Below are positions 10,179-44,112 of a DNA stretch of 64,000 nucleotides, piece after piece. The notes below the pieces were generated by a model. It was not told where the DNA came from. It was given only the letters and a program-made list of their open reading frames with translations, and searched no databases. The position numbers and the translations under genes were made by a program. Position 1 is the first letter of the stretch. Every line of letters begins with the position of its first letter. Origin of the DNA: an uncultured Spirochaetota bacterium (GTDB lineage Bacteria; Spirochaetota; Spirochaetia; SZUA-6; Fen-1364); contig CAWJRT010000017.1 in the NCBI GenBank assembly GCA_963845325.1, forward strand, positions 25,204-89,203, given 5' to 3'.

Positions 10179-11224
10179 GTTTTCGGCTGGACCCGCTGAC
10201 CCGCGAGAGATTCCGCCGGTTTCGCTCAATACGGCGCGCCTGGGCATCATTGTGGATCCTGATCGTCCTCGTGGCACTTTCCCTCGTCGCGGAGATCCTC
10301 GTCAACTCGCGCCCCATCGCGGTCTGGTACCAGGGCAGGCTGTCCCTGCCCACCTACGGCCGGGTCCGGTTCGGAGACGAGTTCGGCCTGGGCTATCACT
10401 ACGAGGCAAACTACCGCGAGCTTGCACAGAAGCTCGCCCGGGAAGGCACCGGATGGGTCCTGATGCCCCCGGTGCCGTACAATCCGCTCGAACAGGAGTT
10501 CCGTGACGGATCGTATCCGCCTTACCCGCCCTCGGCCTCGCTGCGGCATTTCCTGGGAACGGACAGGATCGGGCGGGACGTTTTGGCGCGCCTCCTGTAC
10601 GGCTTCAGGATCTCCATCCTCTTCTCCCTTGCTTTCGTGCTGGTGACGTTCGTCGTCGGGACGCTCGTGGGAATCCTCATGGGATACGTGGGCGGCAGGT
10701 TCGACCTCGTGGTCCAGCGGCTCATCGAGATCTGGGAGCAGATCCCCTTCCTGTACGTTGTCATGCTCGTGGTGTCGATATTCCAGCCGGAGTTCTTCCT
10801 GTTCCTGGCGATCTTCATCATCTTCGGGTGGACCTCCCGGACGTGGGGCGTGCGCGCCCTGACATACCGCGAGCGCGAGCGGGATTACGTGCTTGCCGCC
10901 CGCACGATGGGCGCCGGCACGTGGCGCATCATCAGCGTGCACATCCTTCCCAATGTCCTTGTCGTCGTGCTGACAAGCCTGCCCTTCGCAGTGGAAGGAG
11001 GGATCAGCTCGCTGACCGCGCTCGACTATCTCGGGTTCGGCCTGCGACCGCCGACTCCCAGCTGGGGAGAGCTCATCAGCCAGGGAATCTCCGCCTACCA
11101 GGCGGCCCCCTGGATCATCGCGTCGGTGGTTTCAGCGCTGACCTTCGTGCTGGTGCTCGTTGCCTTCGTCGGGGAAGGGCTCCGCGATGCCTTCGATCCC
11201 AGACGCTACACGGTTTATCAGTAG
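10175..11224 (+). CDS. Peptide ABC transporter permease, YejE/OppC-like
   Basis: ATGA overlap with upstream gene; RFRRFRSIRRAW, HFLGTDRIGRDVLARLLYGFRIS, GEGLRDAFDPR. Confidence 0.9.
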   Translation: MSFRLDPLTRERFRRFRSIRRAWASLWILIVLVALSLVAEILVNSRPIAVWYQGRLSLPTYGRVRFGDEFGLGYHYEANYRELAQKLAREGTGWVLMPPVPYNPLEQEFRDGSYPPYPPSASLRHFLGTDRIGRDVLARLLYGFRISILFSLAFVLVTFVVGTLVGILMGYVGGRFDLVVQRLIEIWEQIPFLYVVMLVVSIFQPEFFLFLAIFIIFGWTSRTWGVRALTYRERERDYVLAARTMGAGTWRIISVHILPNVLVVVLTSLPFAVEGGISSLTALDYLGFGLRPPTPSWGELISQGISAYQAAPWIIASVVSALTFVLVLVAFVGEGLRDAFDPRRYTVYQ

Positions 11225-11245: not shown

Positions 11246-13180
11246 ATGACGACAATGCACCGACTGCGGCGAATCATGCTCGTGTCCCTGGCCGCAGTTC
11301 TGGTCGGCTCAGGCGCGTGGTCGCAGGGATTCACGTCGAAGGCCGTCGATGCTGATGAGAAGGCGATGGCGGCGGAAAAGCGGCCCGGATTTGCGAGCCC
11401 CGCCGTTCAAGACAAGGGCCTTGTCGTCCCCGGTCTGCCGGAAAAACTCGCCTGGTTCACCAGCCGGCCGGGCATCTTCGGCTCACCGCGCGCAAAGCAG
11501 GGAGGCACCTTCCGAGGGTACATCGCGGAGTTCCCGGACACGTTCCGCACTGTCGGCCCCAACGCCAACGGGGCCTACCGGCCGTATTTCACAACGAGCC
11601 CCGGCCTGGTTGACAACAACTCGGAGACCAAGGAATGGATGCCCGCCATGGCAACCGACTGGGCCTTCGGCGCCGATGGCCGGAGCGTCTACTTCAAGCT
11701 CAACGAAAAGGCGCGCTGGACGGACGGGACGCCCGTCACATCGGCGGACTATACCTTCATGTTCGCAATGATGCGAAGCCCCGACATCCAGGATCCATGG
11801 TACAACGAGTACTACACGAAGCAGGTCGTCGACGTGAAAGCATTCGGCGACTTCGTCATCAGGATCCAGGCCGGTGTTCCCATGGCGCGGGACGATCTCC
11901 TGATGAATGTGAACCTTTCACCGCGGCCGAGGCACTTCTACGGCGGAGTCATCAAGAAGGACTGGGTTGACGCATACCAGTGGACCTTCGAGCCCACCGC
12001 CGGGCCATACTACCTTGACACCTTCAAGAAGGGCGAGTCGATGATCTTCCGAAAAGTGAAGGACTGGTGGGGCTACCAGTACGACAACAACCGCTACCGT
12101 TTCAACGTCGAAACGCTCGAGTTCCGCGTGATCACGGGCGGAAACGACATCGTGCGGAACTACTTCTACAACGGAGAAATAGACTCCTACCCGCTCATCG
12201 TTCCCCAGGAGTGGGCTGATGCCGAGAGCCATGACCCGGTCAAGAGAGGACTCGTCGACCGCCAGTACAATTTTTACGTGCCTCTCACCGGCGTTTCCGG
12301 CATCGTCCTCAACGTCAAGGATCCCCTTTTTGCCGACATCAATGTCCGCAAGGGGTTGTACTACACAATCAACATGCAGAAGATGATCGACACGGCGCTG
12401 CGGGGCGAGTACAGCAGGTATCACAACATCGGCCTTGCGCATGTTTTTGCCGGCATTTCCTTCGACGATGACAGCATCAGGAAGCCCGAGTTCGACCCGG
12501 CAAAGGCCGGGGAGCTCTTTGCGGCTGCAGGGTACTCCGGCTTCGGCCCTGACGGGATCCGCCGCAATGCAAAGGGAGACCGTCTTTCCTTTGAGCTGCT
12601 CTACCAGTCGCCCAACCACACGGAGCGGCTCTCGGTTCTGAAGGAAGAGGCAAAGAAGTCGGGACTGGAGATCCAGCTCAAGCTCATGCAGCAGGGATCG
12701 TTCACCGCGGTCCGGGAGAAGAAGTTCCAGGCGTGGTGGGGCGGAATGTCCACGAGCCTCTACGACGACTACTGGGAGTATTTCCACTCAAAAAACGCCG
12801 CGGAGACGCAGACCAACAATTTCTGGGGCTACGCGGACAAGGACATGGACAAGCTCCTGGACTCCTTCAGGAGCGAGAGCAGCCTCGAGAGGAAGGCGGC
12901 GCTTGACCGGCAGATCCAGCGAAAAGTGGACCAGGCTGCGCTCGTCATCCCGAACTACTACGTGCCCTACTGGCGCGGTGCGGCATGGAAGTGGATCCGA
13001 TTCCCGTCGTGGCTTTCCCTGAAATACTTCGACGACTTCTACGACCCCTTCTCCGGCACCACGGGCTACACGGGCTACTTCTGGGTGGATAATGACATCA
13101 GGAAAGAAGTCATCGATGCGCAGCGCGGCGGCAAGTCATACGCGCCTCGCATCTTCAAGGACGAGACGAACAGGAAGTAG
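11246..13180 (+). CDS. Peptide ABC transporter substrate-binding protein (family 5, YejA-like)
   Basis: Signal peptide; AKQGGTF, ARWTDGTPVTSADYTF, GPYYLD motifs of family-5 solute-binding proteins. Confidence 0.9.
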   Translation: MTTMHRLRRIMLVSLAAVLVGSGAWSQGFTSKAVDADEKAMAAEKRPGFASPAVQDKGLVVPGLPEKLAWFTSRPGIFGSPRAKQGGTFRGYIAEFPDTFRTVGPNANGAYRPYFTTSPGLVDNNSETKEWMPAMATDWAFGADGRSVYFKLNEKARWTDGTPVTSADYTFMFAMMRSPDIQDPWYNEYYTKQVVDVKAFGDFVIRIQAGVPMARDDLLMNVNLSPRPRHFYGGVIKKDWVDAYQWTFEPTAGPYYLDTFKKGESMIFRKVKDWWGYQYDNNRYRFNVETLEFRVITGGNDIVRNYFYNGEIDSYPLIVPQEWADAESHDPVKRGLVDRQYNFYVPLTGVSGIVLNVKDPLFADINVRKGLYYTINMQKMIDTALRGEYSRYHNIGLAHVFAGISFDDDSIRKPEFDPAKAGELFAAAGYSGFGPDGIRRNAKGDRLSFELLYQSPNHTERLSVLKEEAKKSGLEIQLKLMQQGSFTAVREKKFQAWWGGMSTSLYDDYWEYFHSKNAAETQTNNFWGYADKDMDKLLDSFRSESSLERKAALDRQIQRKVDQAALVIPNYYVPYWRGAAWKWIRFPSWLSLKYFDDFYDPFSGTTGYTGYFWVDNDIRKEVIDAQRGGKSYAPRIFKDETNRK

Positions 13181-13185
13181 AGGGG

Positions 13186-14175
<990 letters not shown>

Positions 14176-14179
<4 letters not shown>

Positions 14180-14960
14180 TTCCGAATGCCCTGGTTGAAA
14201 CCAGCGGTCTTTCCGTGCGTTTTGCCCAGGCAAGATTCAGCGGCCGCTCGATTGTGCATGCATTGAAGGACGTGAGCCTGGCGGTCTCTCCGGGGGAAAC
14301 GCTGGGCGTCGTCGGGGAAACCGGCTGCGGCAAAAGTACCCTCTGCCGATGTGTCGTCCGTCTGTACCGGCCAAGCAGCGGAAAGGTGTTCTTCAATGGA
14401 ATGGATATCAGCGCGGTCCGGAGCGGAAGCTGGGCGGCCTGCGCCGCGCCGTGCAGATGATCTTCCAGGACCCCGCCGACTCCCTGAACCCGCGCCTGCC
14501 GGTGGGATCCATCATCGAGGAGCCTCTGCTCATCCAGCGCACGTTCGGGGCAGCCGAGCGCCGCCGGCGGACAGCCTCCCTGCTCGACGAGGTTGGTCTC
14601 CCCCGAAGCGCCGCGGAAAGGTACCCGCACGAGTTCTCCGGCGGCCAGCGCCAGAGGATCGCGATTGCCCGAGCCCTCGCGCTTAAGCCGTCGCTCCTGG
14701 TGTGCGACGAGCCGGTCAGCGCGCTGGACGTCTCCATCCAGGCCCAGATCCTGAACCTGCTCCTGGACCTTCAGCAGGAGTACGGGCTGGCCATGATCTT
14801 CGTCTCCCACGACCTTTCGATTGTCCGGCACATGTCCGATCGAGTAGCGGTGATGTACAGGGGCGAGGTCGTCGAGCTTGCCCCATCGGAAGAGATCTAC
14901 AGAAATCCGCAGCATGATTATACGCGCGCGCTGCTTGCTTCCATCCCGGGATCCGGATAA
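14176..14960 (+). CDS. Peptide ABC transporter ATP-binding protein, OppF/DppF-like (frameshift near 14420)
   Basis: GETGCGKST in ORF 14176..14460; [24 protein letters not shown] in ORF 14349..14960. Confidence 0.88.
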
Positions 14961-14980
14961 AAAAGGCTCTTTCACCAGGA

Positions 14981-15034
14981 TTGCTTCCAGTGCACGATAT
15001 GTGTTACACTTTCTAAATGAAATTACATTTCGTG
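14981..15034 (+). promoter_or_regulatory. Sigma-70-type promoter of the regulator overlapped by two CAC-N5-GTG operator-like boxes
   Basis: TTGCTT(14981)-18 nt-TACACT(15005) with extended TG; boxes CACGATATGTG 14993-15003 and TACATTTCGTG 15024-15034. Confidence 0.6.
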
Positions 15035-15041
15035 GTTGATA

Positions 15042-15968
15042 ATGGCTGACTTTTCGACAAGACTGCGACAGCTTCGAAAAGAGAGCGGGCTTCGACAAAA
15101 GGACCTGGCGGATGCCTTCGGCACCGCCCAGACTACCATCGCGAACTACGAGAACAAGCTGCGATTTCCCGACGAGCCGATGCTCGGCAGGTTTGCCGAG
15201 TACTTCGACGTATCCCTTGATTACCTGCTGGGGCGAAGTGACGCAAAGCGCAAAACGCGGGAGTGGGTGCCGGAAAACAGGGAGCCGCCGGAGACGCCGC
15301 TTCCGTCGTCAAGCGATGCCGCGCGGTACCTCGACCTGGTTCGTCAGGGCGGCAGCGACGAGGCAGCGCAGCTCATCGAGAGTCTTTCCCGGGGCGCGCT
15401 GGGGATCCGAAGGACGTACCTTGAAGTCCTCGAGCCAGCGTTGAAGGAAGTAGGCCGGTTGTGGGCTCACGGAAAAATCTCGGTGGGTGAGGAGCACATG
15501 GTCAGCCAGGCCACCGAACGAATCATGTCCCGGATCTATTCACAGGAAGGAACGCCTCGCGCAGCATCCGGCGAGGCCAGCTGCTGCGTCATGGCGGTTT
15601 CCAGCGAGCAGCACCTGATCGGTCCACGCATGGTGTCTGATTTCCTGCGACTTGACGGCTGGAGCGTCCAGTTCCTCGGCGGAAACCTGGGGATCAGGCA
15701 CCTCCTGGAGGTGCTGGCGGCACGGCCCGTGAACCTCCTGGCAGTTTCCGTCACTTCTCGGAACAACGTCACGGAGGCGGCTGATCTCATCGCGTCCGTC
15801 AGGGAGAAGGACTTCCTGAAAGAGACCCGCGTCATCGCGGGAGGCCAGGCCCTCCAATCCAGGCCCGACTTGTGGGAGGAGATCGGAGCGGACGGGACCG
15901 GCCGTGACGCGGAATCAGCGGTAGTGACCGCAGACGAGCTCATTCGAAAGCGGCTCCCCCTCCACTGA
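15042..15968 (+). CDS. XRE-family HTH regulator fused to a cobalamin-binding (CarH/LitR-type) domain
   Basis: N-terminal LRQLRKESGLRQKDLA...TIANYEN...VSLDYLLGRS (HTH_3); W-x9-EH motif (WAHGKISVGEEH); E-x-H-x-x-G motif (SEQHLIG); Rossmann strands LLAVSVT and VIAGGQA. Confidence 0.88.
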   Translation: MADFSTRLRQLRKESGLRQKDLADAFGTAQTTIANYENKLRFPDEPMLGRFAEYFDVSLDYLLGRSDAKRKTREWVPENREPPETPLPSSSDAARYLDLVRQGGSDEAAQLIESLSRGALGIRRTYLEVLEPALKEVGRLWAHGKISVGEEHMVSQATERIMSRIYSQEGTPRAASGEASCCVMAVSSEQHLIGPRMVSDFLRLDGWSVQFLGGNLGIRHLLEVLAARPVNLLAVSVTSRNNVTEAADLIASVREKDFLKETRVIAGGQALQSRPDLWEEIGADGTGRDAESAVVTADELIRKRLPLH

Positions 15969-16001
15969 GATGAGCCTGCGAGAGGCCGATTTATTGGCAA
16001 T

Positions 16002-16104
16002 CACATTATGTGTACAAAAGTAGTTGATACCGGGCCGGAGATTAATATTTTCAGTATATTTATTGACTTTTAAGAGACAATCCATGATCATAACACATAT
16101 CGTG
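16002..16104 (+). promoter_or_regulatory. AT-rich promoter of the ABC operon with two CAC-N5-GTG operator-like boxes
   Basis: Boxes CACATTATGTG 16002-16012 and CACATATCGTG 16094-16104; TTGACT at 16063 with a weak -10 (GATCAT) 17 nt downstream. Confidence 0.6.
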
Positions 16105-16121
16105 ATGCAAGGGGTTATGAA

Positions 16122-16811
16122 ATGAGCGTCGTGGAAATTGTCGATGTGAAGAAACATTACATGCTTGGCGATACCCGGGTGGACGCCCTCCGCGGGGTAT
16201 CCCTGAAAATCGAGAAGGGAGAGTTCGTTGCAATTGCCGGCCCCTCGGGCTCGGGCAAGAGCACGATCCTCAACATGATCGGCTGCATCGACAGCCCGTC
16301 GGACGGGCTGGTGATGATCGAAGGCACCGAGGTGGAACACCTCAGCGACACCGAGCTCACACGCTACCGCCGGAACAAGATCGGGTTCATCTTCCAGTCC
16401 TTCAACCTGATCCCCGTGCTGAATGTATACGAGAACATCGAGTTCCCGCTCCTGCTCAGGCGAAACCTCTCCCGCAAGGAACGGGAAAAGATCGTCACGC
16501 GCTTCGTGGAGGAGGTCGAGCTCTCCGACCGGCTGAAGAACAAGCCCAACGAGCTTTCCGGAGGCCAGCGGCAGCGTGTGGCAATCGCGCGGGCGCTCGT
16601 GACCAACCCCCTGATCATCCTCGCTGACGAGCCCACGGCGAACCTTGACAGCGCCACGGGGCACAGGATCATCGAGCTGATGAAGACGATCAACGAGGTG
16701 GAGAAGACGACCTTGATCTTCTCCACGCACGACACTCACATCATGGAGCACGCCCGTCGCGTGGTGAACCTCCGGGACGGGCTGGTCACCGGCGTCGAGT
16801 CCCGGGGGTAA
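16122..16811 (+). CDS. ABC transporter ATP-binding protein, LolD/MacB family
   Basis: [50 protein letters not shown]. Confidence 0.92.
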
Positions 16812-16814
16812 GCG

Positions 16815-18204
16815 ATGATCACGGTAAAGATCGCACTCCGGTCACTCGCCCGGCGCAAGGGCCGCATGGCCCTCATCGCGCTCCTTGTAGCCTTCGGGAC
16901 CCTCCTGCTGGTGTACGGCACTACGCTCACGCGCTCCGCGGCCACTGCTTCGCGCAACTCGATCATCCGCAACTTCACGGGAGACTTCATCGTCTACGCC
17001 GCGAAGTCGCGCGAAATTCCCTCGCCGTTCGCCTTCAACACGCCCCTGCCGGTCGTGCCGAACCTGGACAAGCTGACGGCGTACCTGTCGGCGCAGCCCG
17101 AGGTGCAGACCGTGGTTCCCTACGCACAGAACTACGCTCTTCTTTCCCTGGACCTGAAGGGCTCCAAGGTGGACGTGCCGTTCGTCTTCTACGCCGTGCC
17201 GCCGGCGGAGTACGCGAAGACCTTTCCCAACGTGAAGATGGTGGAGGGAGATTTTCTCACAAGCGGCGGCGGGATCCTCATCAGCCGCTACCAGAACGAC
17301 CACTACGAAAAGCGCTACGGCGTGCGGCTTTCCGTCGGCCAGGAGGTCACGGTCCTGGGGTTGAGCGACGGCGGCGGCGTGAACGCGTACCCCACGAAGG
17401 TGCGGGGGATCTTCGAGCCCCTCTACTACAAGAACGTCTTCGATTACATCAACTTCATGGACATGGCCTCCTACTCCCAGGTCTTCAACTTCACCGGGGT
17501 GGCCCGCGGCTCGCTTCCGGAGGCCCTGGACAAGGGGCTGGAGGCCGCGCAGCAGAGCGAGGACAACATCTTCGCGCTGGCAGGGCCGGCCGGCGCCGCC
17601 ATTGACACCTCGAAGCTGAAGTCGGAGTCCATCTCGGGATATACCATGGTCGCCGTGCTCCTGAAAGACCGCGCCGCGGCCCCCGCGCTCCGCGCACGGC
17701 TCGCCGCCCAGGGCCTGGAGGTGAAGACCTCGCCCTGGGACGAGGCCTCGGGGTTCTTCGCGCGCGTCGCCTCCGCCCTGCAGGCATTCATCTGGTTCGC
17801 CACCGGCCTGATCTTCCTCGTTGTGGCCTTCATCTTCATGAATACGCTCATCATCAGCATCATCGAGCGCACCGCCGAGATCGGCACCATGCGGGCTCTT
17901 GGCGGCGAGAAGAGCTTCATCCGGCGGATCTTTCTCTCAGAGACCCTCATCTTGAACCTTGCCGCCTGCCTGGTCGGCATGGCCGTCGGGCTCGTGCTCG
18001 TGCTGGTGACTCGCGTCCGGCCTGCCGCTGCCGGACACGATCTCGCAGTACCTTATCGGCGGCGGTCCGCTTCCCCTGGTCCTGAGCCTGGGCCCGTTCG
18101 TGACGGCCCTCGTCGTGGTGACCGCCGTTTCGGCGATCGCCACCATCCTCCCGATTCGCCTTGCCACGCGCATCACGCCGCTGGCCGCCATGAACGATCG
18201 ATAG
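16815..18204 (+). CDS. FtsX/LolE-like ABC permease 1 (frameshift near 18010)
   Basis: One N-terminal TM helix, large periplasmic domain, IIERTAEIGTMRALG motif; last TM and ITPLAAMNDR-stop in the shifted frame. Confidence 0.85.
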
Positions 18205-18214
18205 GAGCACGGCA

Positions 18215-19541
18215 ATGTGGTTCTACTTCTCCGTCGCCCTGAAAAACGTCTTCCGTCAGAAAAGGCGGTCTTTCACCCTCGGCATCAACTACGCGGTGGT
18301 CACCTTCATCCTGGTGCTGCTGTTCTCCTTCTCCCAGGGGGCGATCAGGAACATCTCCACCAACCTCGTGCGGTCCACGGCAGGTCACATCACCATCTCC
18401 GGCTCGTACACCGCTTCGGGGCGCGTGTTCCTCGGGGTCCGCCGCTCTGCCGAGATTGCCGCCGCGGTCCGGCAGGTCTTCGGAGGGACGGTGAAGATCA
18501 TCCCGCGGTACGTCGTGCGGTCCGCGCTGTACTACAAGGGCATCTCGAAAAGACTGGATTTCACGGGCATCAACACCACGCTGGACTCCGCCTTGAAGGG
18601 GCAGCTGCAGTTCGTGAAGGGCGGCTGGGAGGAGTTTGCCGCCGCTTCCAACGGGGTCATCCTGCCGAAGGACGTGGCGGACTACTTCAGCCTCTCCCTG
18701 GACGATGAGATCGTGGTGGCCGCCCGCGCGCGGCTCGGCGCGTTCAACACGGGCACGCTGAAGGTGAAGGCGATCTACGAATCGGTGAACTTTTTTGCCC
18801 AGGGTCTCGTCCTCTGCCAGCTGCCCTTCACCCGGGCCCTCGACCTGGGGGAGACAGGACACCTCCTCGGCCCTGTACCTGTACTTCCCCGACACCGGCA
18901 ACCTGAACCTCAAGCGCAGCCAGCTTTCGGCGGAGCTGGTGCGGCGGGGTTTCGAGGTGAACAAGCCCGCTGACGCCTCCGCGGCAATTGATGCGGTCAC
19001 ATCGGCCTCCCCCACGTACAAGGCGGACAGCTCGGGTGCGGATTCCAACCGGCTTACTCTCTCCACGATCGACGAGGCGGTGAGCATCGTGACGATCATC
19101 TCCTCCGTCGTGAACGCGGTCGGCGCAGTTGTCGCGCTCATCATGCTGTTCATCATCGCCGTGTCGATATTCATCAACCTCCGTATGACCATCAACGAGC
19201 GGCTGCGGGAGATCGGCACGATGCGCACTATCGGCCTGGGATCGGGCGGGATCACGCTGCTGTTCATGATCGAGAGTGTCCTCCTCGCGCTGCTCTTCAG
19301 CCTCATCGGTGTGGCCGCTGCGCTCGTGGTGGCGGGGATCCTGGTCACGCTGGTTCCAGTGCCGGCAATCGGGGCCATGGCGCTGTTCCTGGACAAGGGC
19401 CACGTGGTGCTCATCCCGCGGGCGGGCGACGTGGCGGGAGTCGTGCTGTTGATCGCCGTCTTCTCCGCTGTGTTCTCGTTCTTCCCCGCCCGTCGAGGAG
19501 GGAAGATCAGGCCGGTGGACGCGCTGACGCGGATATTCTGA
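18215..19541 (+). CDS. FtsX/LolE-like ABC permease 2 (frameshift near 18850)
   Basis: ALKNVFRQKRRS N-terminus; INERLREIGTMRTIG; ends PARRGGKIRPVDALTRIF. Confidence 0.85.
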
Positions 19542-19558
19542 AAAAGGGAGTCGCAACC

Positions 19559-20331
19559 ATGAGGAGCTCTGTTCGAAGGACGATGGTTCTCCTGTTCCTG
19601 GCGGCGGCCGCAGCGCTGGCGTTTTCGGCCGCGCCCCCCGCCGACCCGGCGGCCGAGAGGATTGCCCGGGGTGGGAATCGCAGCTGAACACGGAGGGGCT
19701 TGATGTCACCGCGACATTCACCCTCGTGCAGAAAAAGCCGGGGAGACTGACCGCGTGCTGCGCGTGCAGACTTACCGTCGCGACAGCGCGGACATGTATA
19801 CGATCATCTTCCAGTATCCCGACAGCGAGAAGGGAAAGGGGTACCTGCGACGGGGCGACGACTTGTACTTTTACCTTCCTTCGACCCGGGAGTTCGTGTA
19901 CAAGAACCGCAAGGACAACATCGGGTCCACGGATGCTCGCACGGACCTTTTCGGCCGCCAGAAAGTCCTGGAACAATACACCGCCTCCTCCGCCGGCGCG
20001 GCACAGGTCTCCAAGTGGGAGTGTTCAGGTAGTGAGGCTGGACGCGAAGGTGCCGGATGTCTCTTATCCGGTCCAGAAATGGTATGTACGCAAAACCGAC
20101 GGGCTGCCCGTGAAGGTGGAAAACTTCTCTGCTTCCGAAACGCTCCTCGTGACCTACTACTTCATAGAGTACAAGAGCCTGGGAAACGGCAAGTCCCTTT
20201 TTACCAAGCTCCTTGCGGTCAACAACCTGGAACTGGGCCAGCAGACGTTCCTGACCAACGACAACATTTCCACGGCCTTCATTCCCGATTACACCTTTAC
20301 CAAGGCGTACCTCGAGGAGAAATCCCGATGA
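19559..20331 (+). CDS. LolA-like 'outer membrane lipoprotein-sorting' protein (frameshifted)
   Basis: GGGAG RBS, signal peptide MRSSVRRTMVLLFLAAAAALAFS; FQYPDSEKGKGYLRRGDDLYFYLPS, IGSTDARTDLF, IPDYTFTKAYLE across three frames. Confidence 0.75.
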
Positions 20332-21625
20332 GGCGCGTTGTGCCTGCCGCAGGCGCGGCGCTCGGCACCTCGATCGCCTTCGCGCTGGGGCTCCTGCTCA
20401 CGACCATCCCCACCGCTCATGCGCAGGATTCGGGACAGGACATGTTCGACACCTCGGCGTTCGACCAGAACGTTCAACAGAGCAAGCAGCAGGAGCAGAA
20501 AACAAGGCTGGAAACGCAGTTCGGGGGAAACCTCCTGTGGGATACGTCGGTGACGACGACCACGGATTTCAGCGGCTACGGCGGAGGGGGTTCGTTCTCC
20601 GGAAAGGCCTTCGTCAAGGTGAGCGTTCCCGATTTCGGTGCCGCCTACCTCGCCTACAACTATTCCAAGAGTCTCTACCAGGGCGCCGCCGGCACGATCC
20701 CCGGCGCCCCGTTCGGTCCCGGCGGCTCCCTCCTCGCGCAGTCCGCTGGAGACCTGTTCGGAGCAAGCTATGAGCTCTGGCGGAGTTCTACACGAGCCTT
20801 GACATCGCGCAGAAAGTGTTCTTCCGCATCGGCAACCAGCTCCTGGCGTGGGGGCCATCCGTGATCTGGACCCCCGTGGACTTCGTCAACCTCCAGCGGG
20901 TGAACCCTCTTGCCGCCCTGGACCTGCGCGTGGGCAAGCCGGGCGTGCGGATCACCGTGCCGATGGGCGTCAGCAACCTTTTCATCTTCGCCGACTTGTC
21001 AGGCACGGTGACATCAGGCACGGTCAACGACCCTGTACGGTCGACGAACCTCGCCGAGCGCTGGGACCTCACGGTCCTCGGAGTGGAGCTCGCCGTCACG
21101 GGCATCACCGGCTTCGGGATCCAGAGCCAGGCCGGCTTCGACTTCTCCGGCAGGCTGCTTGGCTTCGACCTGTACGGCGAGCTCACCGCGGGCATTCCGA
21201 CCGGCAACGCGGCGTTCACCTGGGCATCGTCCCTGGGCTTCCAGAGGTCCTTCGGGGATCTGAGCTACTGGAGCGTTGCAGGGGAGCTCTTCTACAACGA
21301 CGCCGGAACCGCGGACATCTCCGGCTATCCTGCCCTGGCCGCGGCGCAGGCGTTCACTCCTTTCTACGTGGGCAAGGTGTATTCTTACGCCGCGCTGACA
21401 CGAAGCCACCTGCTCATCGACGGTGTGAGCGCGACGATCGCAGGCTTCGTCGACCTTTCGGACGTGTCGTTCCTCAGCCGGCTGTCAGCCTCGATCAACG
21501 TGCCCAAGGTCCCGCCGTTCACGTTCAGCCTCAGCTGGGCAGGAGGAGGCTCAAACAGGGCCTTCACGTACGTGACAGGCAACAATTCCCTGACCGCGGA
21601 GCTGCAGGTACGAGTGGAGTTCTGA
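20328..21625 (+). CDS. Probable outer-membrane beta-barrel protein (frameshift near 20780)
   Basis: Signal peptide ending AHA-Q; FRIGNQLLAWG...WTPVDFVN motif; amphipathic beta-strands; C-terminal LQVRVEF fits a BAM beta-signal. Confidence 0.7.
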
Positions 21626-21651
21626 TGCGGGGCGGTGTCACGGCGCGGTGA

Positions 21652-24046
21652 TCACGATGACGCCTCAACCGCCCCGAACGCCGCCTCGAGGATGCTGTCC
21701 ACGTCGATGTGCATGGATCGATAGAGGTCCTGGCGGCTGCCGGACTGCCCGAAAGCCTCCACGCCGAGCGGCGTCAGCGGCTGGCCAAAAACGCTGCCCA
21801 GCCAGGCAAGCGCACCCGCTGCGCCGTCTATCACGGTCACGATCGGCGCCGCTCGCTGATGAGGGGTGATAAGTCGGCCCAGCAGCCGGCCGCCGCCGGC
21901 GCCATGGGTGCGCCAGTCCCGGTAGGCGCGCCGCGGGCTGCAGAGATGGATGAGGTTTGCGCCGATCCCTTCATGCTCCAGGAACTCGGCGGCCTCGATG
22001 GCTTCCGGAACCATCGCGCCGCACGAGACAAGATGGACCAGGGGTTCCTGGCGCGCTTCGCGCAGCAGGTAGCCTCCCTCCAGGAAGTCCCTGCACAGCG
22101 CCTCGCCGCCCCGCCGCGCGAGTGCAGGCGCCATGAGGGATTGGTCCACGGGCTTCGTGGACAGGCGCAGGTAGGTGCTGCGGCCGCTGCTTCGATTGCA
22201 GCACTGCCGAAGACCTTCCAGGAGAGCCCATTCCACTTCGGCGGCAAAGCATGGTTCGTAATAGTCGAGCGCCGGGCAGCTCCATCCCGAGGGAGGCAGT
22301 GACCGAAGACTGGTGCGCCCCACCTTCAGGGGAAAGGGAGACGCCGCTTGGCGTGCCGACAAAGATGAAACGCGAACCGCTGTATAATCCGAAGATCAGG
22401 GCATCCAGGCCCCGGCAGACGAACGGGTCGTAGAGTGTTCCGACGGGAAAGAGGAGCTGCCCGTTCATCTCGTGTGACAACCCCAGCTGCCCAAGGAGGG
22501 AGAAGAGGTTCATTTCCGATATGCCCAGCTCGATGTGCCGCCCTCCGGGGGAAGCTTTCCAATTCACCAGGCAGGGGCGGCCCTGCTCGAAGTCGGCAAC
22601 GTCATGAAGCGAAAACTGTCCCACCTTGTTGATCCAGCCGGCAAGACCCGTGGAGACGGAGACGTCGGGAGACGATGTGACGATCCTTTCCCCGATCCCC
22701 GGCATGTCAGCCAGGCGCAGGAGTGCCCTGCCAAAGGCCTCCTGCGTAGACGTCACGTTCATCGGCTGATCCGATGCGCCGGGAAGCTCGAGAGGGATGT
22801 CCACCGCCCTCACGGGAACAGCGCGGAGATGTCGGCGCGGTCCGTGAGCGGGAGCGGTCGAATCGGCGGGAAGGAGCCCGAGCCGCTCGGCAGAAAGGCG
22901 GCACCACCGCCCCTCCTCGCTTTCGGGATCAAAGCTCGCCCATGGGTCGTGGGGGTCCGCCTGGAGGCGCACGGCAAGAGACTCCATGCGGGACGGGCTG
23001 AGCAGCACCGAATGATTGAATGGATCCGCAGCGATGGGGAGCCTCCAACCCTTGATCGTATAGGCAAAAATGACTGTCGGCCGGCCCGTGTCCGCTTCGG
23101 CCTGCGCAAACGCGCGCAGGAGTGCACGAAGGTCATGGCCCCCGAGATTGCTGAGGAGCCACGGAAGCGCAGCATCCGGCTGCTCGGAGAGACAGAGGGC
23201 AATGTCGGTTCCCCCGGGTCTGTTCCGAAGTCTCCCTCGAATCTCGGAACCACTCATGCGGATCAGGCTCTGGTACTCCTCATTGCACATCTCGTCGATG
23301 CACACCCGCAGCGCCTGGCCACCCTCCCGCGCGAAGGCTGCTTCGAGGGCGGTGCCGTACTTCGACTCGATGACCTGCCAGCCGCTGTCGGCGAACAAGG
23401 CCTTCAGCTGGGCCGCCCGGACGCCCGGGACGACACGGTCCAGGCTCTGGCGGTTCAGATCGATGACCCACAGGGAATTGCCCAGCTGCTGAAGCGAGCC
23501 GTCGATGATCGCCTCCCAAACGTTGCCCTCGTCCAGCTCCGCGTCGCCGCTGACCGCGATGAATCTCTTCGACGTTGTGTCTCCGAAATGCGCCTGCGCA
23601 TATCTCTGGACCAGGGCCGCGAACGAAGGCGCGACTGCGCCCAGTCCCACGGACCCCGTGGAAAAGTCCACGGCGTCCCCGTCCTTCGTGCGGCTGGGAT
23701 ACGCCTGGAGTCCGCCGTACTCTCGCAGCGTCGTCAACCTCTGGCGAGGCAGCACACCCAGGAGGTACATTGCGGCGTGCATCACGGGCGAAGCGTGCGG
23801 CTTGACCGCGATCCTGTCAGCGGCGGTCATGGAACGGAAATACAGGGCAGTCAGGATGGACACGGCAGATGCGCACGACGCAGGATGTCCCCCGATCTTG
23901 GTCTTCTCCAGGTTCGGACGCCCATGATTTGCGTGGTCGATGATCTTCATGGAAAGCCACAGGAGGCGGTCCTGGATCTTTTCCAGGATGCGGACTTCCG
24001 GCTCGAGATCGGCCTCCGAGTGTGCGCGGGTCGCTGTCTGGGGCAT
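21652..24046 (-). CDS. Pyruvate dehydrogenase E1 (AceE)/transketolase-like ThDP enzyme (frameshift near 22270)
   Basis: KIGGHPAS, LQAYPSRTKD, FSTGSVGLG, ThDP motif GDAELDEG...N, HIELGISEMN, EGGAHQS, LGVEAFGQSG. Confidence 0.85.
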
Positions 24047-26239: not shown

Positions 26240-27523
26240 ATGAGCCGCGCCCCGGTGGTGATGCTCGCAAGCGGGACCCGCGGAGATGTCCAGCCCTTTC
26301 TCGCCCTCGCCCTGGGCCTGCAGCGCGCCGCCATACCCGTGGTGATCGCGGCGGCACCACGGTTCCGGGCGCTCGTTGAAGCGAGGGATGTCGGCTTTTC
26401 TCCCCTGGAAGGCAACCCGAGCGACCTCATGGCCGGCGCGTCAGGTTCCATGGCCGCATCCGTCAGCGGCGGAGCAGCACGTGGAATGACTTCGACGTTT
26501 CGTTTCCTCCGCGAAGGCCAGCCCGAGTTCCGCCGCATGCTCGAGTCTGCCGCGGCCGCCTGCCGGCCGGCGCGCGCGTTGATTGCCGGCCTGTCCTCGA
26601 CATGGGGCATGTCGATAGCGGAAGCCCTGGGCATCCCCTGCGTCCTGGGCATGCTGCAGCCCTTCGGCCGCACCGGGGCTTTCCCATCGGCGCTGATGCC
26701 GTTTCGGTCTTCCGCGGGACGCCGGTACAACGCCCTGAGCTATCGGGTCATCGAGCAGGCGATGTGGCAACCGTGGCGGCGGACGACAAACGAGTGGCGG
26801 CGCTCCACCCTAGGGCTGCCGCGCCTTCCCGCGGGCGGCCCGTGGAGAGCTTTATATGCAGCAAGTTTTCTCTGCCTCTACGGATTCAGCCCTTCCGTTG
26901 TGCAGCCTCCCGCAGACTGGCCGGCTGCCCACATCGTCACCGGCTATTGGTTCCTCGAAGACTCTCTGGACTGGACGCCGCGGCGCGGCCTCGAGGACTT
27001 CATGTCCTCGGGAGACCCGCCGTTGTATGTCGGGTTCGGGAGCATGGTCACAGGGTTCGGAAGGAACATTTTCCGGGTTCTGCAGAGCGCACTCGAATTG
27101 AGCGGACTGCGCGCTGTCGTGTCTGCCGGTGGCCAGCCCGGCCTGCTCCTGCCTTCACAGGCTTCACGGAGGACGTTTTTCGTGGAGGATGCTTCCCATG
27201 AATGGCTCTTCCCGCGGGTGACTGCCGTCGTGCATCATGGCGGTGCCGGCACGACGGCGCAGGGCCTGCGTGCGGGTGTCCCGTCGGTCATCTTCCCACG
27301 GGCAGTGGACCAGTATTTCTGGGCCGAGCGTGTTGCCCTGCTCGGGGCAGGGCCGCGCCCCGTTGGCAGGCATGACTTCAACCCCCGCACTCTTGCACAC
27401 CTCTTTCATCTCGCGGCAACGGACAACGGAATGCGGGAGCGGGCAAGGCTCATCGGCCAGCGCATCCGGGCGGAAAACGGAGTTGAAAAAGCGGTTGAGG
27501 CGCTGCTTCCGATACTGGCCTGA
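26240..27523 (+). CDS. GT1 glycosyltransferase, sterol 3-beta-glucosyltransferase-like
   Basis: GTRGDVQPFLALALGL, PADWP...VTGYWF, YVGFGSM, HEWLFPRVTAVVHHGGAGTT, DQYFWA. Confidence 0.88.
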   Translation: MSRAPVVMLASGTRGDVQPFLALALGLQRAAIPVVIAAAPRFRALVEARDVGFSPLEGNPSDLMAGASGSMAASVSGGAARGMTSTFRFLREGQPEFRRMLESAAAACRPARALIAGLSSTWGMSIAEALGIPCVLGMLQPFGRTGAFPSALMPFRSSAGRRYNALSYRVIEQAMWQPWRRTTNEWRRSTLGLPRLPAGGPWRALYAASFLCLYGFSPSVVQPPADWPAAHIVTGYWFLEDSLDWTPRRGLEDFMSSGDPPLYVGFGSMVTGFGRNIFRVLQSALELSGLRAVVSAGGQPGLLLPSQASRRTFFVEDASHEWLFPRVTAVVHHGGAGTTAQGLRAGVPSVIFPRAVDQYFWAERVALLGAGPRPVGRHDFNPRTLAHLFHLAATDNGMRERARLIGQRIRAENGVEKAVEALLPILA

Positions 27524-27534
27524 TCCCCGGCAGC

Positions 27535-28728
27535 CTACACGCTGCCATTCCGCGGCTGCCCTTTCCAGGGCGCGAGGACCAGGGAAGCGGCCAGCGCGAA
27601 ACAACCGCCCATCCAGTACGGCGCAGGCGGGCCAAAGACCTGGTGCGCCGCACCGGCCAGGGCCGGTCCCGCAATCATGCACCCGCTCAGTACTGATTGC
27701 ACTCCCCCCATGACGCGTCCGACCCCGGCCTCTGGTGCGCCGTGCACCACGAGGCTCATCAAAGACGGGATTGCAAGGCCGGTGCCGACGGCAACTGCGC
27801 CAAGAGCAGGATAGAGCATCCAACCGACACGCGCAGCGGCCGCCAGCGGGAACGCGGCCAGAACCATCGCCGCACCCGCCAGGGCCAGCCGTGCTTCACC
27901 TGCCCGCGGCGCCATGCGGCCCACCAGAAGGCCCTGCGTGAGCACTGCGCACGTCCCGATGAACGCGAAGAACAGCCCGTTGCCGGACGGGGTCCAGCCG
28001 AACCGCGACTGGCTGAAGAGAGCAAAAGTCGACGGAAGTCCGGAGAAGGAAAGGTTGAGCGCCGCAAGTGTCAGAAGAAACGTTCTGAGCTGAGGGTGAC
28101 CGAAGATATCGACCAATCCGCGGACCGGATTGATGCGGATTGTCTGCCGGCCGACAACAGTCCTGTCCGGTTTGTGGAAATCACGGATGGCCGCCAGTCC
28201 GAACAGCGCGTTCCCCAGCGCGACGCCGCTTGCGGCAAACGCAGGTATCCGCAGCCCCCGGGCCCCGAGGAGTCCCCCCACCAGCGAGCCGGCAGCGACC
28301 CCCAGCCCGACCGCTGCTCCCGCAAGACCCATCCACCGGGTGCGATCGGATGGGCGCGCGCCGTCGGCGATGTATGCCTGAGCAGTGACATAGCTTCCTC
28401 CGATCAAGCCGCCGAAGGCCACGACGGCGAAAAGTGCGGCCAGTGACCCGGCAAAAGCAAGACCCAGGTAGGCGACAATGCTGCCGAGCAGGCAGACAAC
28501 GAGGACCAGCCGCCTGCCGTACCGGTCGGCAAGTGATCCGATGACGGGAGCGCTGAGCGCCTGCATGAGGGCGTAGACCGAGCCGAGAGCGCCGGCCACC
28601 AGGGCGCCTCCGGCGCTGCGCTGGACGTACAGCGGCAGCAACGGAACCACCATTCCAAAACCGGTCATGTCCAGGAAGATCGTAACGAGGATGAACGCCA
28701 GGTGGGGCCGGCGCATCTTCTGCTGCAC
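27535..28728 (-). CDS. MFS efflux transporter, TetA/DHA1-like
   Basis: IFLDMTGFGMVVPLLP, motif A GSLADRYGRR, AQAYIAD, about 12 TM helices; GGAG RBS before GTG 28728. Confidence 0.88.
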   Translation of the reverse strand: MQQKMRRPHLAFILVTIFLDMTGFGMVVPLLPLYVQRSAGGALVAGALGSVYALMQALSAPVIGSLADRYGRRLVLVVCLLGSIVAYLGLAFAGSLAALFAVVAFGGLIGGSYVTAQAYIADGARPSDRTRWMGLAGAAVGLGVAAGSLVGGLLGARGLRIPAFAASGVALGNALFGLAAIRDFHKPDRTVVGRQTIRINPVRGLVDIFGHPQLRTFLLTLAALNLSFSGLPSTFALFSQSRFGWTPSGNGLFFAFIGTCAVLTQGLLVGRMAPRAGEARLALAGAAMVLAAFPLAAAARVGWMLYPALGAVAVGTGLAIPSLMSLVVHGAPEAGVGRVMGGVQSVLSGCMIAGPALAGAAHQVFGPPAPYWMGGCFALAASLVLAPWKGQPRNGSV

Positions 28729-28799
28729 GTCAGGACTCCGCATCCTCCCCATAAGTACATCGTCTTGCACCTATTCGCAACCGCCGGCACAATCGTGTC

Positions 28800-29796
28800 G
28801 TGAAAACCGAAGGTGATCACTCGGGCACGAACACTGCCGCTGCGGTCCGGGCGTACTACGACAGCAACACTCCCCTTTTCCTATGGATGGGGATCGGGCG
28901 GCGGACCCTGGCCATTCGGCGTGCCGTCTGGGCAAGGGGAGTCAGGACCCTCGAGGAAGCCGTGAATTACGTGAACGGTCTCATTGCCTCCGAGGCACAG
29001 GTTGTCGCCGCCGCACAGAAGAAGGACTTTCTGCGCATTCTCGATATCGGGTGCGGAGTCGGAGGCAGTCTGTTGTTCCTGGCGAGCGTTCTCAAGACAG
29101 GGTTCCGTGGGGTCGGAATCACGATCAGCCCGCGGCAGTCCCGGATAGCGAGCCGGCAGGCCGCGATTCGGGGGCTTTCTGCCACGTGCTCGTTCCTTGC
29201 GGGGGACTTCACGCTTGTATCCGGGCTGCGCCCTTTTGATCTCTCGTTCGCCATCGAGTCGTTCGTTCATTTCACCTCGCCGGCTGCGTTCTTTGCACCT
29301 GCCGCCGGTCTGTCTCGAGCCGGGGGGACGGTTGCTCGTTGCAGACGATTTCCTGTCAAGGAAAAGGTTTTCCCGCCCGGAAGGAAGAATGGTCGAGGCG
29401 TTCCGTCATGGGTGGATCCTGTCCTCCCTCGGCACGGTCGAGCATGCCGTGCATGTCGCCGGGGCGTTCGGACTGCGGCTGGTCGAGGACCGGGAGCTCA
29501 GCGCGTTTTTGTCACAACTTCCCGTGGGCGCTCGCATGGGACGATGGGTGGTGAGGCTCATGCGCGCCATTCCCAGCCCGTGGCCGTACTGGCGAAGCTC
29601 GGTCGGCAGCCTTGCGCAGGCGGCCTGCAGGCGGGCGGGGCTGGTGGAATATCACTTTCTTGTGTTCGAGAAGAAACGAACAGGATCAGGCCCGGCCAAA
29701 CGCCCCCGTCCAGAGGATCAACCCGAAGACCACCGAGGCGATTCCGCCGAAGATGTAGTACAGCGTGTGCTGGGTGAACCGCCCGACGAAGAATGA
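28800..29796 (+). CDS. Class I SAM-dependent methyltransferase (frameshift near 29315)
   Basis: VRAYYD, motif I ILDIGCGVGG, GITISPRQ, FAIESFVH, LEPGGRLLVADDF. 3' end uncertain because it overlaps the convergent gene. Confidence 0.8.
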
Positions 29797-38465: not shown

Positions 38466-38580
<115 letters not shown>

Positions 38581-38704
38581 AATAATCTCTACTCGAGTCA
38601 GGAAGAAGAAGAGACGAAGAGCGTGTCAAGCTCGCCGGGCACCGCGCTTGCGCGTGGCCGTGCGCTCTTCCACGCTTGCCCGAGGGCAAGTGTGGGGGAA
38701 AATA

Positions 38705-41713
<3,009 letters not shown>

Positions 41714-41897
41714 ATATTTTCCCTTGCACGCGCTCACGCATCCCTGCATCCGCACGCGCGTCTGCTCCCGCAGGTACCCTGCTCAGGCACATGCCCCACG
41801 GTCGCTCACGCTTCGTCTTTCCGGTGCCAATGGACAGACCTCGCCTCTACCGCTGCCACGGTATTCCCGTGGCATGCTTCTTCTTCCTTCCCTCGAG

Positions 41898-41909
41898 TTG
41901 TCAAAGAAC
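41898..41909 (-). promoter_or_regulatory. boxA antitermination element in rRNA spacer (second copy in leader at 43945-43953)
   Basis: GTTCTTTGACAA upstream of 23S and ATCTTTGACA upstream of 16S on the transcribed strand. Confidence 0.65.
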
Positions 41910-41999
41910 CAAGTGTCACGCTCGGTGACCGTCACAATGCCACCAGCGGTGGCCGTCGAATGCCACCCGGTGGCAGTGGTTGCGGCGACGCGCCGCTCG

Positions 42000-42073
<74 letters not shown>

Positions 42074-42238
42074 AGGTGATGGGAAACATCGCCACGGGAT
42101 GCCACGGCATTTGTCGAGCCGTGGCATTCGTTGCTCCGGAGCCGCGGTACTTCCGTGCCGCGGTCTATATACAGAAAAGGGAGGAGAGTTTGAGAGAGAG
42201 CGAGCAGTGTACCCTCCCCCGAAGGGGAAGGCAGTACT

Positions 42239-43787
<1,549 letters not shown>

Positions 43788-44112
43788 GATATAAGGCCTG
43801 CCCTTGCGGGCAGGTTTTATACTTCGTTACACGCACTTCCCCGGCCTCGCTGACTTTGCGACCGGTTATAGTGCGCTTTCGCCTCCACTGCAGTCTCCCG
43901 CAGCGTCGACGGACCCGCTCTCTTCATTCTCCCCTTCCCTTGACTGTCAAAGATCAGGGCCACGGTATTCCGTGGCATTCGCGCGTGCACGGTACTCCGT
44001 GCCTAGCGCACTGCGCGCGGACTCTTCAGCCCCTCACGCAGCTTGCCCCAGAGACGGCACTTTCCCCCTCGCATCTCTGTCAGAGGTAAGTACTACCCTT
44101 GAGGCGAGTGTC

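Follow-up and report, generated by a model that had tools for sequence, protein, structure and literature searches.

On balance we favour reading five adjoining genes of an uncultured Spirochaetota bacterium as an ATP-binding cassette (ABC)-driven trans-envelope exporter for hydrophobic cargo that, in this genus, stands behind a cobalamin light switch. The genes lie in a 64,000-nt stretch of contig CAWJRT010000017.1 (assembly GCA_963845325.1, positions 25,204 to 89,203; hereafter the window, whose numbering is used unless a contig is named). The parts of this reading differ in standing: the machine and its direction of transport are highly probable, light control in this genus is probable as judged from sequence, and an isoprenoid pigment (a carotenoid or a derivative) is the leading candidate for the cargo, tentatively so. 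What is new here is an ABC-driven, light-linked version of a known, uncharacterised cassette, together with a testable cargo hypothesis and an XRE-headed CarH-like photoreceptor. An earlier interpretation made from the sequence alone (the original prediction) was right in outline and overstated both the novelty of the system and the generality of its B12 control.

The plus strand from 15036 to 21625 carries six genes, one for a regulator and five for the transporter (Table 1). Open reading frames (ORFs) and Pfam/NCBIfam matches confirmed the five transporter genes and positions originally predicted for 16122–21625; alignment to the closest relative revealed frame breaks in four of the five that had been overlooked. 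The ATPase and permease 1 genes are separated by 3 nt and the two permease genes by 10 nt, and the stop codon of the carrier gene overlaps the start codon of the barrel gene as ATGA. Among 41 genomes, comprising the window's own (G000), its closest relative (G014, 87% nucleotide identity) and further relatives (other G numbers), 10 contain a barrel orthologue at E < 1e-40 and an eleventh a broken copy. When one genome per prokaryote species was scanned, 30 loci came up, every one in a Spirochaetota metagenome-assembled genome (MAG). The complete series from the ATPase through permeases 1 and 2 and the carrier to the barrel is found in 19; in 2 the contig ends within the ATPase gene, 8 are truncated further in with the order unchanged, and one (L053) lacks a LolA-like match. 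Because the order recurs in all 30 loci as far as the contigs reach, the L053 carrier excepted, it is far from chance. Among 1.84 billion representative proteins, a profile search picked out 1099 barrel relatives at E ≤ 1e-3, 707 at ≤ 1e-10 and 108 at ≤ 1e-30; one of 10 distant representatives looked up was traced to a Deltaproteobacteria MAG, and 21 searched in Pfam gave one weak DUF1302 match and one unrelated YbeY domain.

Sequence comparisons place the predicted pump apart from the housekeeping lipoprotein machinery. The best NCBIfam match of the ATPase is LolD (TIGR02211) at 229.9 bits, below the 307.75 cut-off, with DarD, DevA and FtsE scoring nearly equally. Intact orthologous permeases reach 46.1 and 56.4 bits against LolC/E (TIGR02212, cut-off 362.45), over model positions 217–409 only, and the permease fragments of the window reach 46.6 and 40 bits. 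The intact orthologues match FtsX (PF02687) with E values of 4.3e-16 and 1.9e-10, and those of permease 2 are single ORFs of 441–443 aa. The matches of the intact orthologues to PDB sequences (E 1e-10 to 1e-4) are limited to the FtsX membrane domain, in YtrF, MacB, LolE, LolF and LolC. The best lolCE matches of the genome are at C27:53010-56302, the window permeases ranking 6th and 7th of 13, and a canonical LolA (PF03548; 35.5 bits, over the cut-off) is encoded at C16:200575-201030. Since the LolC/E and LolD cut-offs are missed, similarity is confined to the FtsX membrane domain and better lolCE and LolA candidates exist elsewhere, we assign the pump to the MacB/FtsX-superfamily (type VII) ABC transporters, outside LolCDE. 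In MacB and other type VII ABC proteins a large periplasmic Sabre/Porter domain separates the first from the second of four transmembrane helices; the approximately 300 residues ahead of the FtsX domain in the permeases are consistent with such a domain. The original prediction of a Lol-like, non-housekeeping path from ABC pump to LolA-fold protein to barrel is borne out by the lolCE genes at C27 and the LolA gene at C16, and the permeases, by their rank, are not the genome's only candidates for a housekeeping LolCDE.

The carrier halves encoded in the window score 32.4 and 54.5 bits against PF17131 (gathering score 30) and intact orthologues 107.2 and 110 bits; the carrier profile matches PDB entries 3BUU and 3BK5, uncharacterised structures of the LolA superfamily. 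Read by eye, the N-terminus of the window carrier, MRSSVRRTMVLLFLAAAAALAFSAAP, looks like a type-I signal peptide without a cysteine, as do those of three of four orthologues (L009, L011 and L030), the fourth (L032) having a cysteine near the predicted cleavage site. As the signal peptides mostly lack a cysteine, the carrier is more likely a soluble periplasmic protein than a lipoprotein.

As a single sequence the barrel has no Pfam or NCBIfam match, and its pieces in the window have no DUF1302 match. Scores of orthologues against DUF1302 (PF06980, gathering score 23.2 bits) lie around the cut-off: 23.6 bits in G035, 23.1 (23.9 summed) in G002 and 16.5–21.5 in the others; another check found a match in one of five members (E 3.2e-5). 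Alignment by hhalign of 42 orthologues with four DUF1302-positive spirochaete barrels (47.6, 33.3, 31.1 and 23.8 bits) gave a probability of 97.6% (E 2.6e-12) over 272 columns, and the two sets share the motif GNQxxAWG..PVDxxN. On the strength of this alignment, the common motif and the near-cut-off Pfam scores, we regard the barrel as a branch of the DUF1302 lineage that is short and has diverged. AlphaFold2, given a 42-sequence alignment, models the G014 orthologue (88% identical to the C-terminal piece of the window barrel) with 18 strands by DSSP (pLDDT 82.7, pTM 0.75). Foldseek finds AlgE, chitoporin and OprD/Occ as its nearest solved folds (TM about 0.5–0.56). AlgE/Occ are also named as the nearest solved folds of DUF1302 in PMC13499233, by whose account no DUF1302 structure has been solved.

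Modelling of the carrier with the barrel, proposed earlier as a check on the scheme, gave an ipSAE of 0.66 (runs 0.72, 0.66 and 0.57), with 0.01 for the best of three controls; this mark is reached by 116 of 157 solved complexes and 2 of 215 mismatched pairs, counts that are rough as they were made with our own alignments. Between runs, 77% or more of the contacts coincide, and the partner has a pLDDT of at least 81. The lowest-error contacts join barrel residues 171–176 of the AWGPS loop (G014 numbering) to carrier residues 108–116, both segments with several invariant or near-invariant columns; set against the DSSP strands, the other barrel contacts involve nearly every periplasmic turn and the C-terminal Phe. 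The modelled complex supports binding, with the carrier capping the periplasmic mouth of the barrel. The score is unlikely to reflect a memorised structure, because no such complex has been solved. For the related DUF1302–DUF1329 pair, an AlphaFold-Multimer complex with ipTM 0.84 is reported in PMC13499233.

The regulator contains HTH_3 (1.3e-12), B12-binding_2 (5.7e-12) and B12-binding (7.9e-12) domains; HTH_19 and HTH_31 also match, so that its helix-turn-helix (HTH) hits are of the XRE type only. Its ORF opens at TTG 15036, and the orthologues start at the ATG at 15042. Signatures given for adenosylcobalamin photoreceptors in PMC9304148 are Wx9EH and E/DxHxxG-x41-SxT/V-x22-27-GG. The regulator has Wx9EH at W143, a motif present in 9 of 10 homologues examined, and ExHxxG from E191 (EQHLIG) followed by 41 residues, SVT, 28 residues and GG; the spacings were counted by hand, and 28 is one beyond the range published there. 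Strict membership of CarH/LitR was rejected: the head is XRE/HTH_3 instead of MerR, and the CarH equivalog NF052513 is missed, at 44.3 bits against a cut-off of 400. Fusion of light-responsive B12 domains to HTH domains is mentioned in general terms in PMC11796333, and a full-text literature search combining XRE, CarH and B12 brought up nothing beyond a review of B12 biosynthesis. By its domain make-up, the regulator would be an XRE-headed addition to the CarH-type light switches.

Operator-like sites lie 5′ of both the regulator gene and the operon (Table 1), and five promoter-like sites occur in 14900–22000, against 0.9 expected from shuffles. The operon-side site copies flank two promoter-like matches in the window; in G014 they fuse into one palindrome around TATAAT, directly 5′ of the ATPase start. 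By eye, CACG..GTG elements precede the regulator gene in five of five loci, and elements like the copy at 15025–15035 (ACAATTCGTG and similar) occupy the same place in G014, G020a, G020b and G004. The strict operator pattern was found in G014 only among 32 loci, with looser relatives, again by eye, in G020, G018 and G004. A search of 12000–24000 for a cobalamin riboswitch or other RNA element returned none, the sole match being a chance snoRNA (E 0.23). Both the B12 regulator and the operator-like repeat named in the original prediction are thus present, as HTH_3 plus B12 domains and three motif copies.

Table 1. Features of the locus (window positions unless a contig or locus is named)
Feature	Position	Strand	Remarks
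Regulator, XRE-type HTH + CarH-type cobalamin-binding module	15042..15968	+	HTH_3, B12-binding_2, B12-binding
ABC ATPase, MacB/LolD/DevA type, intact	16122..16811	+	ABC_tran E 1e-34; 87% identical to orthologue
FtsX permease 1	16815..18204	+	FtsX profile cut at 72/120; tblastn match split over frames 3 and 1; stop 18202-18204
FtsX permease 2	18215..19541	+	FtsX; two overlapping ORFs in the window
Secreted LolA_like (PF17131) carrier	19559..20331	+	PF17131 halves in two frames
Outer-membrane barrel, predicted 18 strands, DUF1302-like short form	20328..21625	+	Ends ...RVEF (terminal Phe)
Operator-like site 1, CACGATATGTGTTA	14993..15006	+	5′ of regulator gene; 14-nt perfect complement of 16091-16104
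Weaker inverted copy, ACATTTCGTGG	15025..15035	-	Just 5′ of regulator start; by eye
Operator-like site 2, ATCACATTATGTGT	16000..16013	+	5′ of promoter-like hexamers at 16024-16051
Operator-like site 3, inverted copy	16091..16106	-	Abuts second -10-like hexamer, just 5′ of ATPase gene
Sigma-70-like promoter matches TTGATA-16-TATTTT and TTGACT-17-GATCAT	16024..16091	+	Consensus only; AT-rich 153-nt spacer
Secreted ~175-aa protein gene	L033 (G014) 10296-10823; G000:C15:304932-305444		In G000 ~3 kb from photolyase C15:308360-309721

In the mechanism that we propose, an ATPase dimer would power a heterodimer of the two FtsX (MacB/LolCE-type) permeases, which, going by their family, would extract cargo from the outer face of the inner membrane and hand it to the soluble LolA-fold protein. 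The latter would dock, as modelled, on the periplasmic mouth of the 18-strand DUF1302-like barrel, and the barrel would take the cargo into or through the outer membrane. In the dark, by analogy with CarH, the XRE-headed regulator with adenosylcobalamin would occupy the paired CAC-N5-GTG sites at its own and the operon promoter; light would release it from them.

Within the genus the regulator gene usually keeps company with the operon. It lies directly 5′ of it in G000 and G014 and, across a contig break, in G004, and at the two loci of G020 it is 5′ with one gene between; in G002, and probably in G009, it is 3′ of the barrel gene, and none was found in G018 (72% complete). In the window genome a 44%-identical paralogue clusters with the only SQS_PSY-family gene of the genome and with genes for hydroxymethylglutaryl-CoA (HMG-CoA) synthase, an acyltransferase, a CrtI-like desaturase, an FMN_dh-family protein (probably a type-2 isopentenyl diphosphate isomerase) and a GHMP kinase (mevalonate kinase). 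Other paralogues are found beside HMG-CoA synthase and CrtI-like genes (G017), the mevalonate pathway (G019) and a photolyase gene (G036). In G020, a divergent polyprenyl synthase gene stands between operon and regulator at both copies, and genes for a CrtI-like desaturase and SQS_PSY follow on the far side of the regulator; at C281 these are joined by a photolyase gene, a second CrtI-like gene and Caroten_synth (PF04240), and the C5 contig ends within SQS_PSY. In G014 a gene for a small secreted protein and then one for photolyase follow the operon on the same strand. Carotenoid, mevalonate and photolyase genes are the classic content of CarH/LitR regulons; finding them around members of the regulator family assigns the transporter to a set of genes that respond to light. 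At the divergent SQS_PSY-family/HMG-CoA synthase promoter of the paralogue cluster (L028, G000:C15:284000-298000, around 1630–1690) there are two direct copies of ACACRAAATGAGTT; the paralogous XRE-B12 regulator, whose gene lies in this cluster 5 kb downstream, may use them as its operator.

An isoprenoid pigment is favoured as cargo because of this carotenoid and mevalonate context and because a LolA-like pigment route has a precedent (PMC8253772). Free-living spirochaetes are reported to make carotenoids that are thought to protect membranes (PMC4511686); one carotenoid producer, the cultured Salinispira pacifica, also encodes a homologue of the barrel with 47% identity. Photosensitisers or photo-damaged lipids come next as candidates. 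In its most specific form, which is possible and in our view doubtful, the system would be a dedicated carotenoid machine that carries freshly synthesised pigment from the inner membrane to the outer one via the ABC extractor, the LolA-fold carrier and the DUF1302-like barrel; the same doubtful reading includes co-switching with pigment synthesis and photolyase by the XRE-headed adenosylcobalamin photoreceptor family.

Several observations weigh against our interpretation. In the 41 genomes, operon and SQS_PSY occur together in 5, the operon only in 6, SQS_PSY only in 6 and neither in 24. The six of 11 genomes with a barrel orthologue and no SQS_PSY match are G014 (89% complete), G002 (96%), G009 (89%), G004 (70%), G024 (99%) and G035 (93%); G014 and G002 have no SQS_PSY match, yet they keep regulator and operon. 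Conversely, 6 of 11 SQS_PSY genomes have no strong (orthologue-level) barrel match. Carotenoid as a general cargo is not supported by this phyletic pattern, which shows no clear coupling. The photoprotective-lipid cargo of the original prediction draws indirect support from the carotenoid, mevalonate and photolyase genes near members of the regulator family and none from phyletic coupling to SQS_PSY. As for the light switch, a regulator homologue was found at none of 16 loci outside the genus with at least 2.7 kb of upstream flank, where the neighbours include TetR (three loci), MarR (one), a two-component pair (one) and LuxR-type regulators (two, downstream). All genome-wide matches to the 12-nt pattern CACRWTWTGTGT, three in 4.94 Mb with 1.5 expected from base composition, fall within this locus, and the pattern was derived from the same three sites counted, so that its absence elsewhere and its conservation in G014 are the independent points. 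As for the machine, the carrier–barrel complex is a model only, and L053 has ATPase, both permeases and barrel with no LolA-like match in the 122-nt gap before the barrel; true gene loss and faulty assembly are both conceivable causes. Lastly, the read check described below covered only 19737/19738, making one of six indels checkable.

Because the regulator was not found at the 16 more distant loci, the light link is a lineage-specific addition and not a feature of the machine. B12 control as a general trait of the cassette was rejected in view of the other regulator types there. Co-occurrence with B12 regulators, as originally proposed, thus holds within the genus, at most loci, and breaks down at the 16 more distant ones; B12/light control as a property of the system, with the regulator linked in the window's genus only, does not stand.

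The best-surviving alternative, which we consider rather unlikely, is a general efflux pump for hydrophobic toxicants (AmeABCD/MacAB-like) that was recruited to a light-stress regulon and expels photosensitisers such as free tetrapyrroles, or photo-oxidised lipids. MacAB-TolC exports protoporphyrin, and the TetR genes directly 5′ of the operon in three distant loci, like the MarR gene in one, are typical of efflux operons. The presence of the operon in genomes without an SQS_PSY match also fits a pump of this kind, as does its co-orientation in G014 with a photolyase gene, a damage-repair function. Among the related systems, the resistance-nodulation-division (RND)-driven DUF1302/DUF1329 system AmeABCD gives monoterpene tolerance (PMC6394551). 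However, both operon copies of G020 sit inside carotenoid clusters with a divergent polyprenyl synthase, and a soluble LolA-fold carrier with a dedicated barrel suits delivery of membrane lipids better, although AmeABCD is built from these parts too.

A specialised second Lol pathway is improbable. It would sort certain lipoproteins to the outer membrane or the cell surface, with the barrel as an insertase replacing LolB, as proposed for Borrelia BBJ23-29. The best NCBIfam matches are indeed LolD for the ATPase and LolE/lolCE for the permeases, the carrier has the LolA superfamily fold (PF17131; PDB 3BUU and 3BK5), and spirochaetes are described in PMC13078400 as lacking LolB. Yet every Lol match is far short of its curated cut-off and covers no more than the generic transmembrane region of FtsX, the genome has its canonical LolA and better lolCE elsewhere, the barrel is DUF1302-like and not Omp85, and the neighbours are lipid and pigment genes rather than lipoprotein genes.

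The frame breaks raise the question whether the operon functions at all in this genome. Of its five transporter genes the ATPase gene is the only one intact in the assembly; blastn against G014 located six frame-breaking indels, one in permease 1 (~18015, +1), one in permease 2 (~18855, +1), three in the carrier gene (~19666, −1; ~19738, −1; ~20027, +1) and a 2-nt insertion in the barrel gene (~20778, +2). Every operon gene is one unbroken tblastn match in G014, and all relatives examined have intact genes. The assembly (4.94 Mb in 35 contigs, 69% complete by marker genes) also splits rpoB (G000:C32:1581-4948) over two frames, and further genes are split in the window, namely two oligopeptide-type ABC ATPase genes at 13186–14960 and a transketolase/E1-like gene at 21652–24046. 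A contig from a freshwater-sediment metagenome (run X1) contains a T after 19737 that is the base of G014 and is absent from the window; run X1 has next to no depth around 18015, 18855 and 20778 and does not bridge 19666 and 20027. Given the split rpoB and other window genes, the 69% completeness and the T restored in run X1, the six indels are most likely consensus errors rather than decay, a conclusion that for five of them is inferential. Frameshifts are pervasive in this assembly, and gene calls anywhere in the genome need frameshift-aware handling. That the operon is a decaying pseudogene array without function, as six frame-breaking indels within 5.5 kb with only one shown absent from other data might suggest, is very improbable given the frameshifts in rpoB and other window genes of this assembly, the lack of stops in the tblastn-aligned frames outside the six indels, the 55–87% protein identity to orthologues and the intact regulator, ATPase and operator.

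Other features of the loci and the window are recorded here. A secreted protein of about 175 aa, without a Pfam or NCBIfam match, is encoded 3′ of the barrel gene in G014, G002 and G018 and 5′ of the regulator gene in G009; it may be a sixth component. Among the distant loci, an ankyrin-repeat protein gene stands directly 3′ of the barrel gene in L042, L044 and L045, and a DOMON-domain protein gene directly 5′ of the ATPase gene in L039 and L053. At 26240–29777, 5–8 kb 3′ of the operon, the window encodes a GT28/EryCIII-like glycosyltransferase, an MFS transporter and a CMAS-like methyltransferase, genes of the lipid-tailoring type. A complete rRNA operon on the minus strand (38466–43790; 16S 42244–43790, tRNA 42000–42073, 23S 38704–41713, 5S 38466–38579) accounts for a 5.8-kb stretch without long ORFs.

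The ABC, LolA-like and barrel cassette is widespread, conserved and orphan as to cargo, and its RND-driven DUF1302/DUF1329 cousins are equally orphan, with only pleiotropic fitness data and monoterpene tolerance to their name. The locus gives the first regulatory and genomic-context clue found for the cassette, a tie to a B12 photoreceptor in one spirochaete genus. It makes two questions testable at the bench: what the machine carries, and by which route hydrophobic pigments reach the outer membrane. If the carotenoid reading were true, it would give the first described route of carotenoids into a diderm outer membrane and the first cargo for the orphan ABC–carrier–barrel cassette.

The operon is best described as an ABC-driven form of the cassettes that pair a DUF1302 barrel with a LolA-superfamily protein (AmeABCD type). 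The window genome contains the carrier and barrel pair three times, with ABC/FtsX here and at C35:32865-37408 and with MMPL/RND at C14:15043-18127; the C14 operon consists of MMPL, LolA_like and DUF1302 genes, and its barrel paralogue reaches 31.1 bits against DUF1302, over the cut-off. FtsX and LolA_like sets with no detected barrel occur on C24 and C13. No MMPL gene was found in the operon itself; in G024 one lies divergently 5′ of it. Such modules with RND pumps are already on record, which counts against the original prediction of an undescribed system: co-fitness of DUF1302, DUF1329, a BNR protein and an HAE3-RND pump is reported for Shewanella, Kangiella and Pseudomonas, with export of envelope components proposed (bioRxiv 10.1101/072470), and AmeABCD of Castellaniella defragrans is required for monoterpene tolerance (PMC6394551). 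Here as there, a DUF1302-lineage barrel gene adjoins genes for an inner-membrane pump and a LolA-superfamily protein of the periplasm, the 18-strand barrel has AlgE/Occ as its nearest solved folds (PMC13499233 for DUF1302), the barrel–carrier model is confident, and the cargo is hydrophobic or not known. The pump differs, an ABC ATPase with two FtsX permeases here and an RND/MMPL pump there. We saw no BNR gene at this locus, and the carrier is PF17131 rather than PF07044; the barrel, at about 430 aa, is shorter than the 541-position Pfam model and only marginally reaches its cut-off.

A Lol-like ABC, LolA-like and barrel scheme had likewise already been proposed, for BBJ23-29 of Borrelia burgdorferi, as a MacB-like ABC, a LolA-like protein and an Omp85-type barrel deduced from structure prediction (PMC13078400). 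As set out there, the scheme shares the general layout, whereas the Borrelia barrel is Omp85/BamA-like instead of DUF1302-like, one permease gene (forming a homodimer) and tetratricopeptide repeat (TPR) proteins take the place of two permeases and no TPR protein, and the genes are plasmid-borne and host-regulated rather than linked to a light regulator. LolCDE-LolA-LolB of E. coli also combines one ATPase gene with two different FtsX permeases in the type VII layout and a soluble LolA-fold periplasmic protein, working from inner to outer membrane. The operon differs from it in failing the LolC/E and LolD equivalog cut-offs, with similarity confined to the transmembrane part, in its β-barrel terminus instead of the lipoprotein LolB, and in not being the best Lol candidate of its genome.

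On the regulatory side, CarH/LitR of Thermus, Myxococcus and Bacillus share with the regulator Wx9EH and the cobalamin motif, carotenoid and photolyase neighbours and operator sites around the promoter, but have a MerR head where this one has XRE/HTH_3, and here the regulator fronts a transporter operon rather than crt genes. On the side of the cargo, the nearest parallel is ApeL, ApeM and ApeN of the aryl polyenes, a dedicated LolA-like route proposed in PMC8253772 to place pigment in the outer membrane. In both cases a dedicated LolA-like carrier would be encoded with a pigment-lipid pathway; as presented in that source, the Ape route uses an RND pump, a LolB-like acceptor and a polyketide-type pigment, whereas the spirochaete operon has an ABC pump, a barrel and isoprenoid neighbours.

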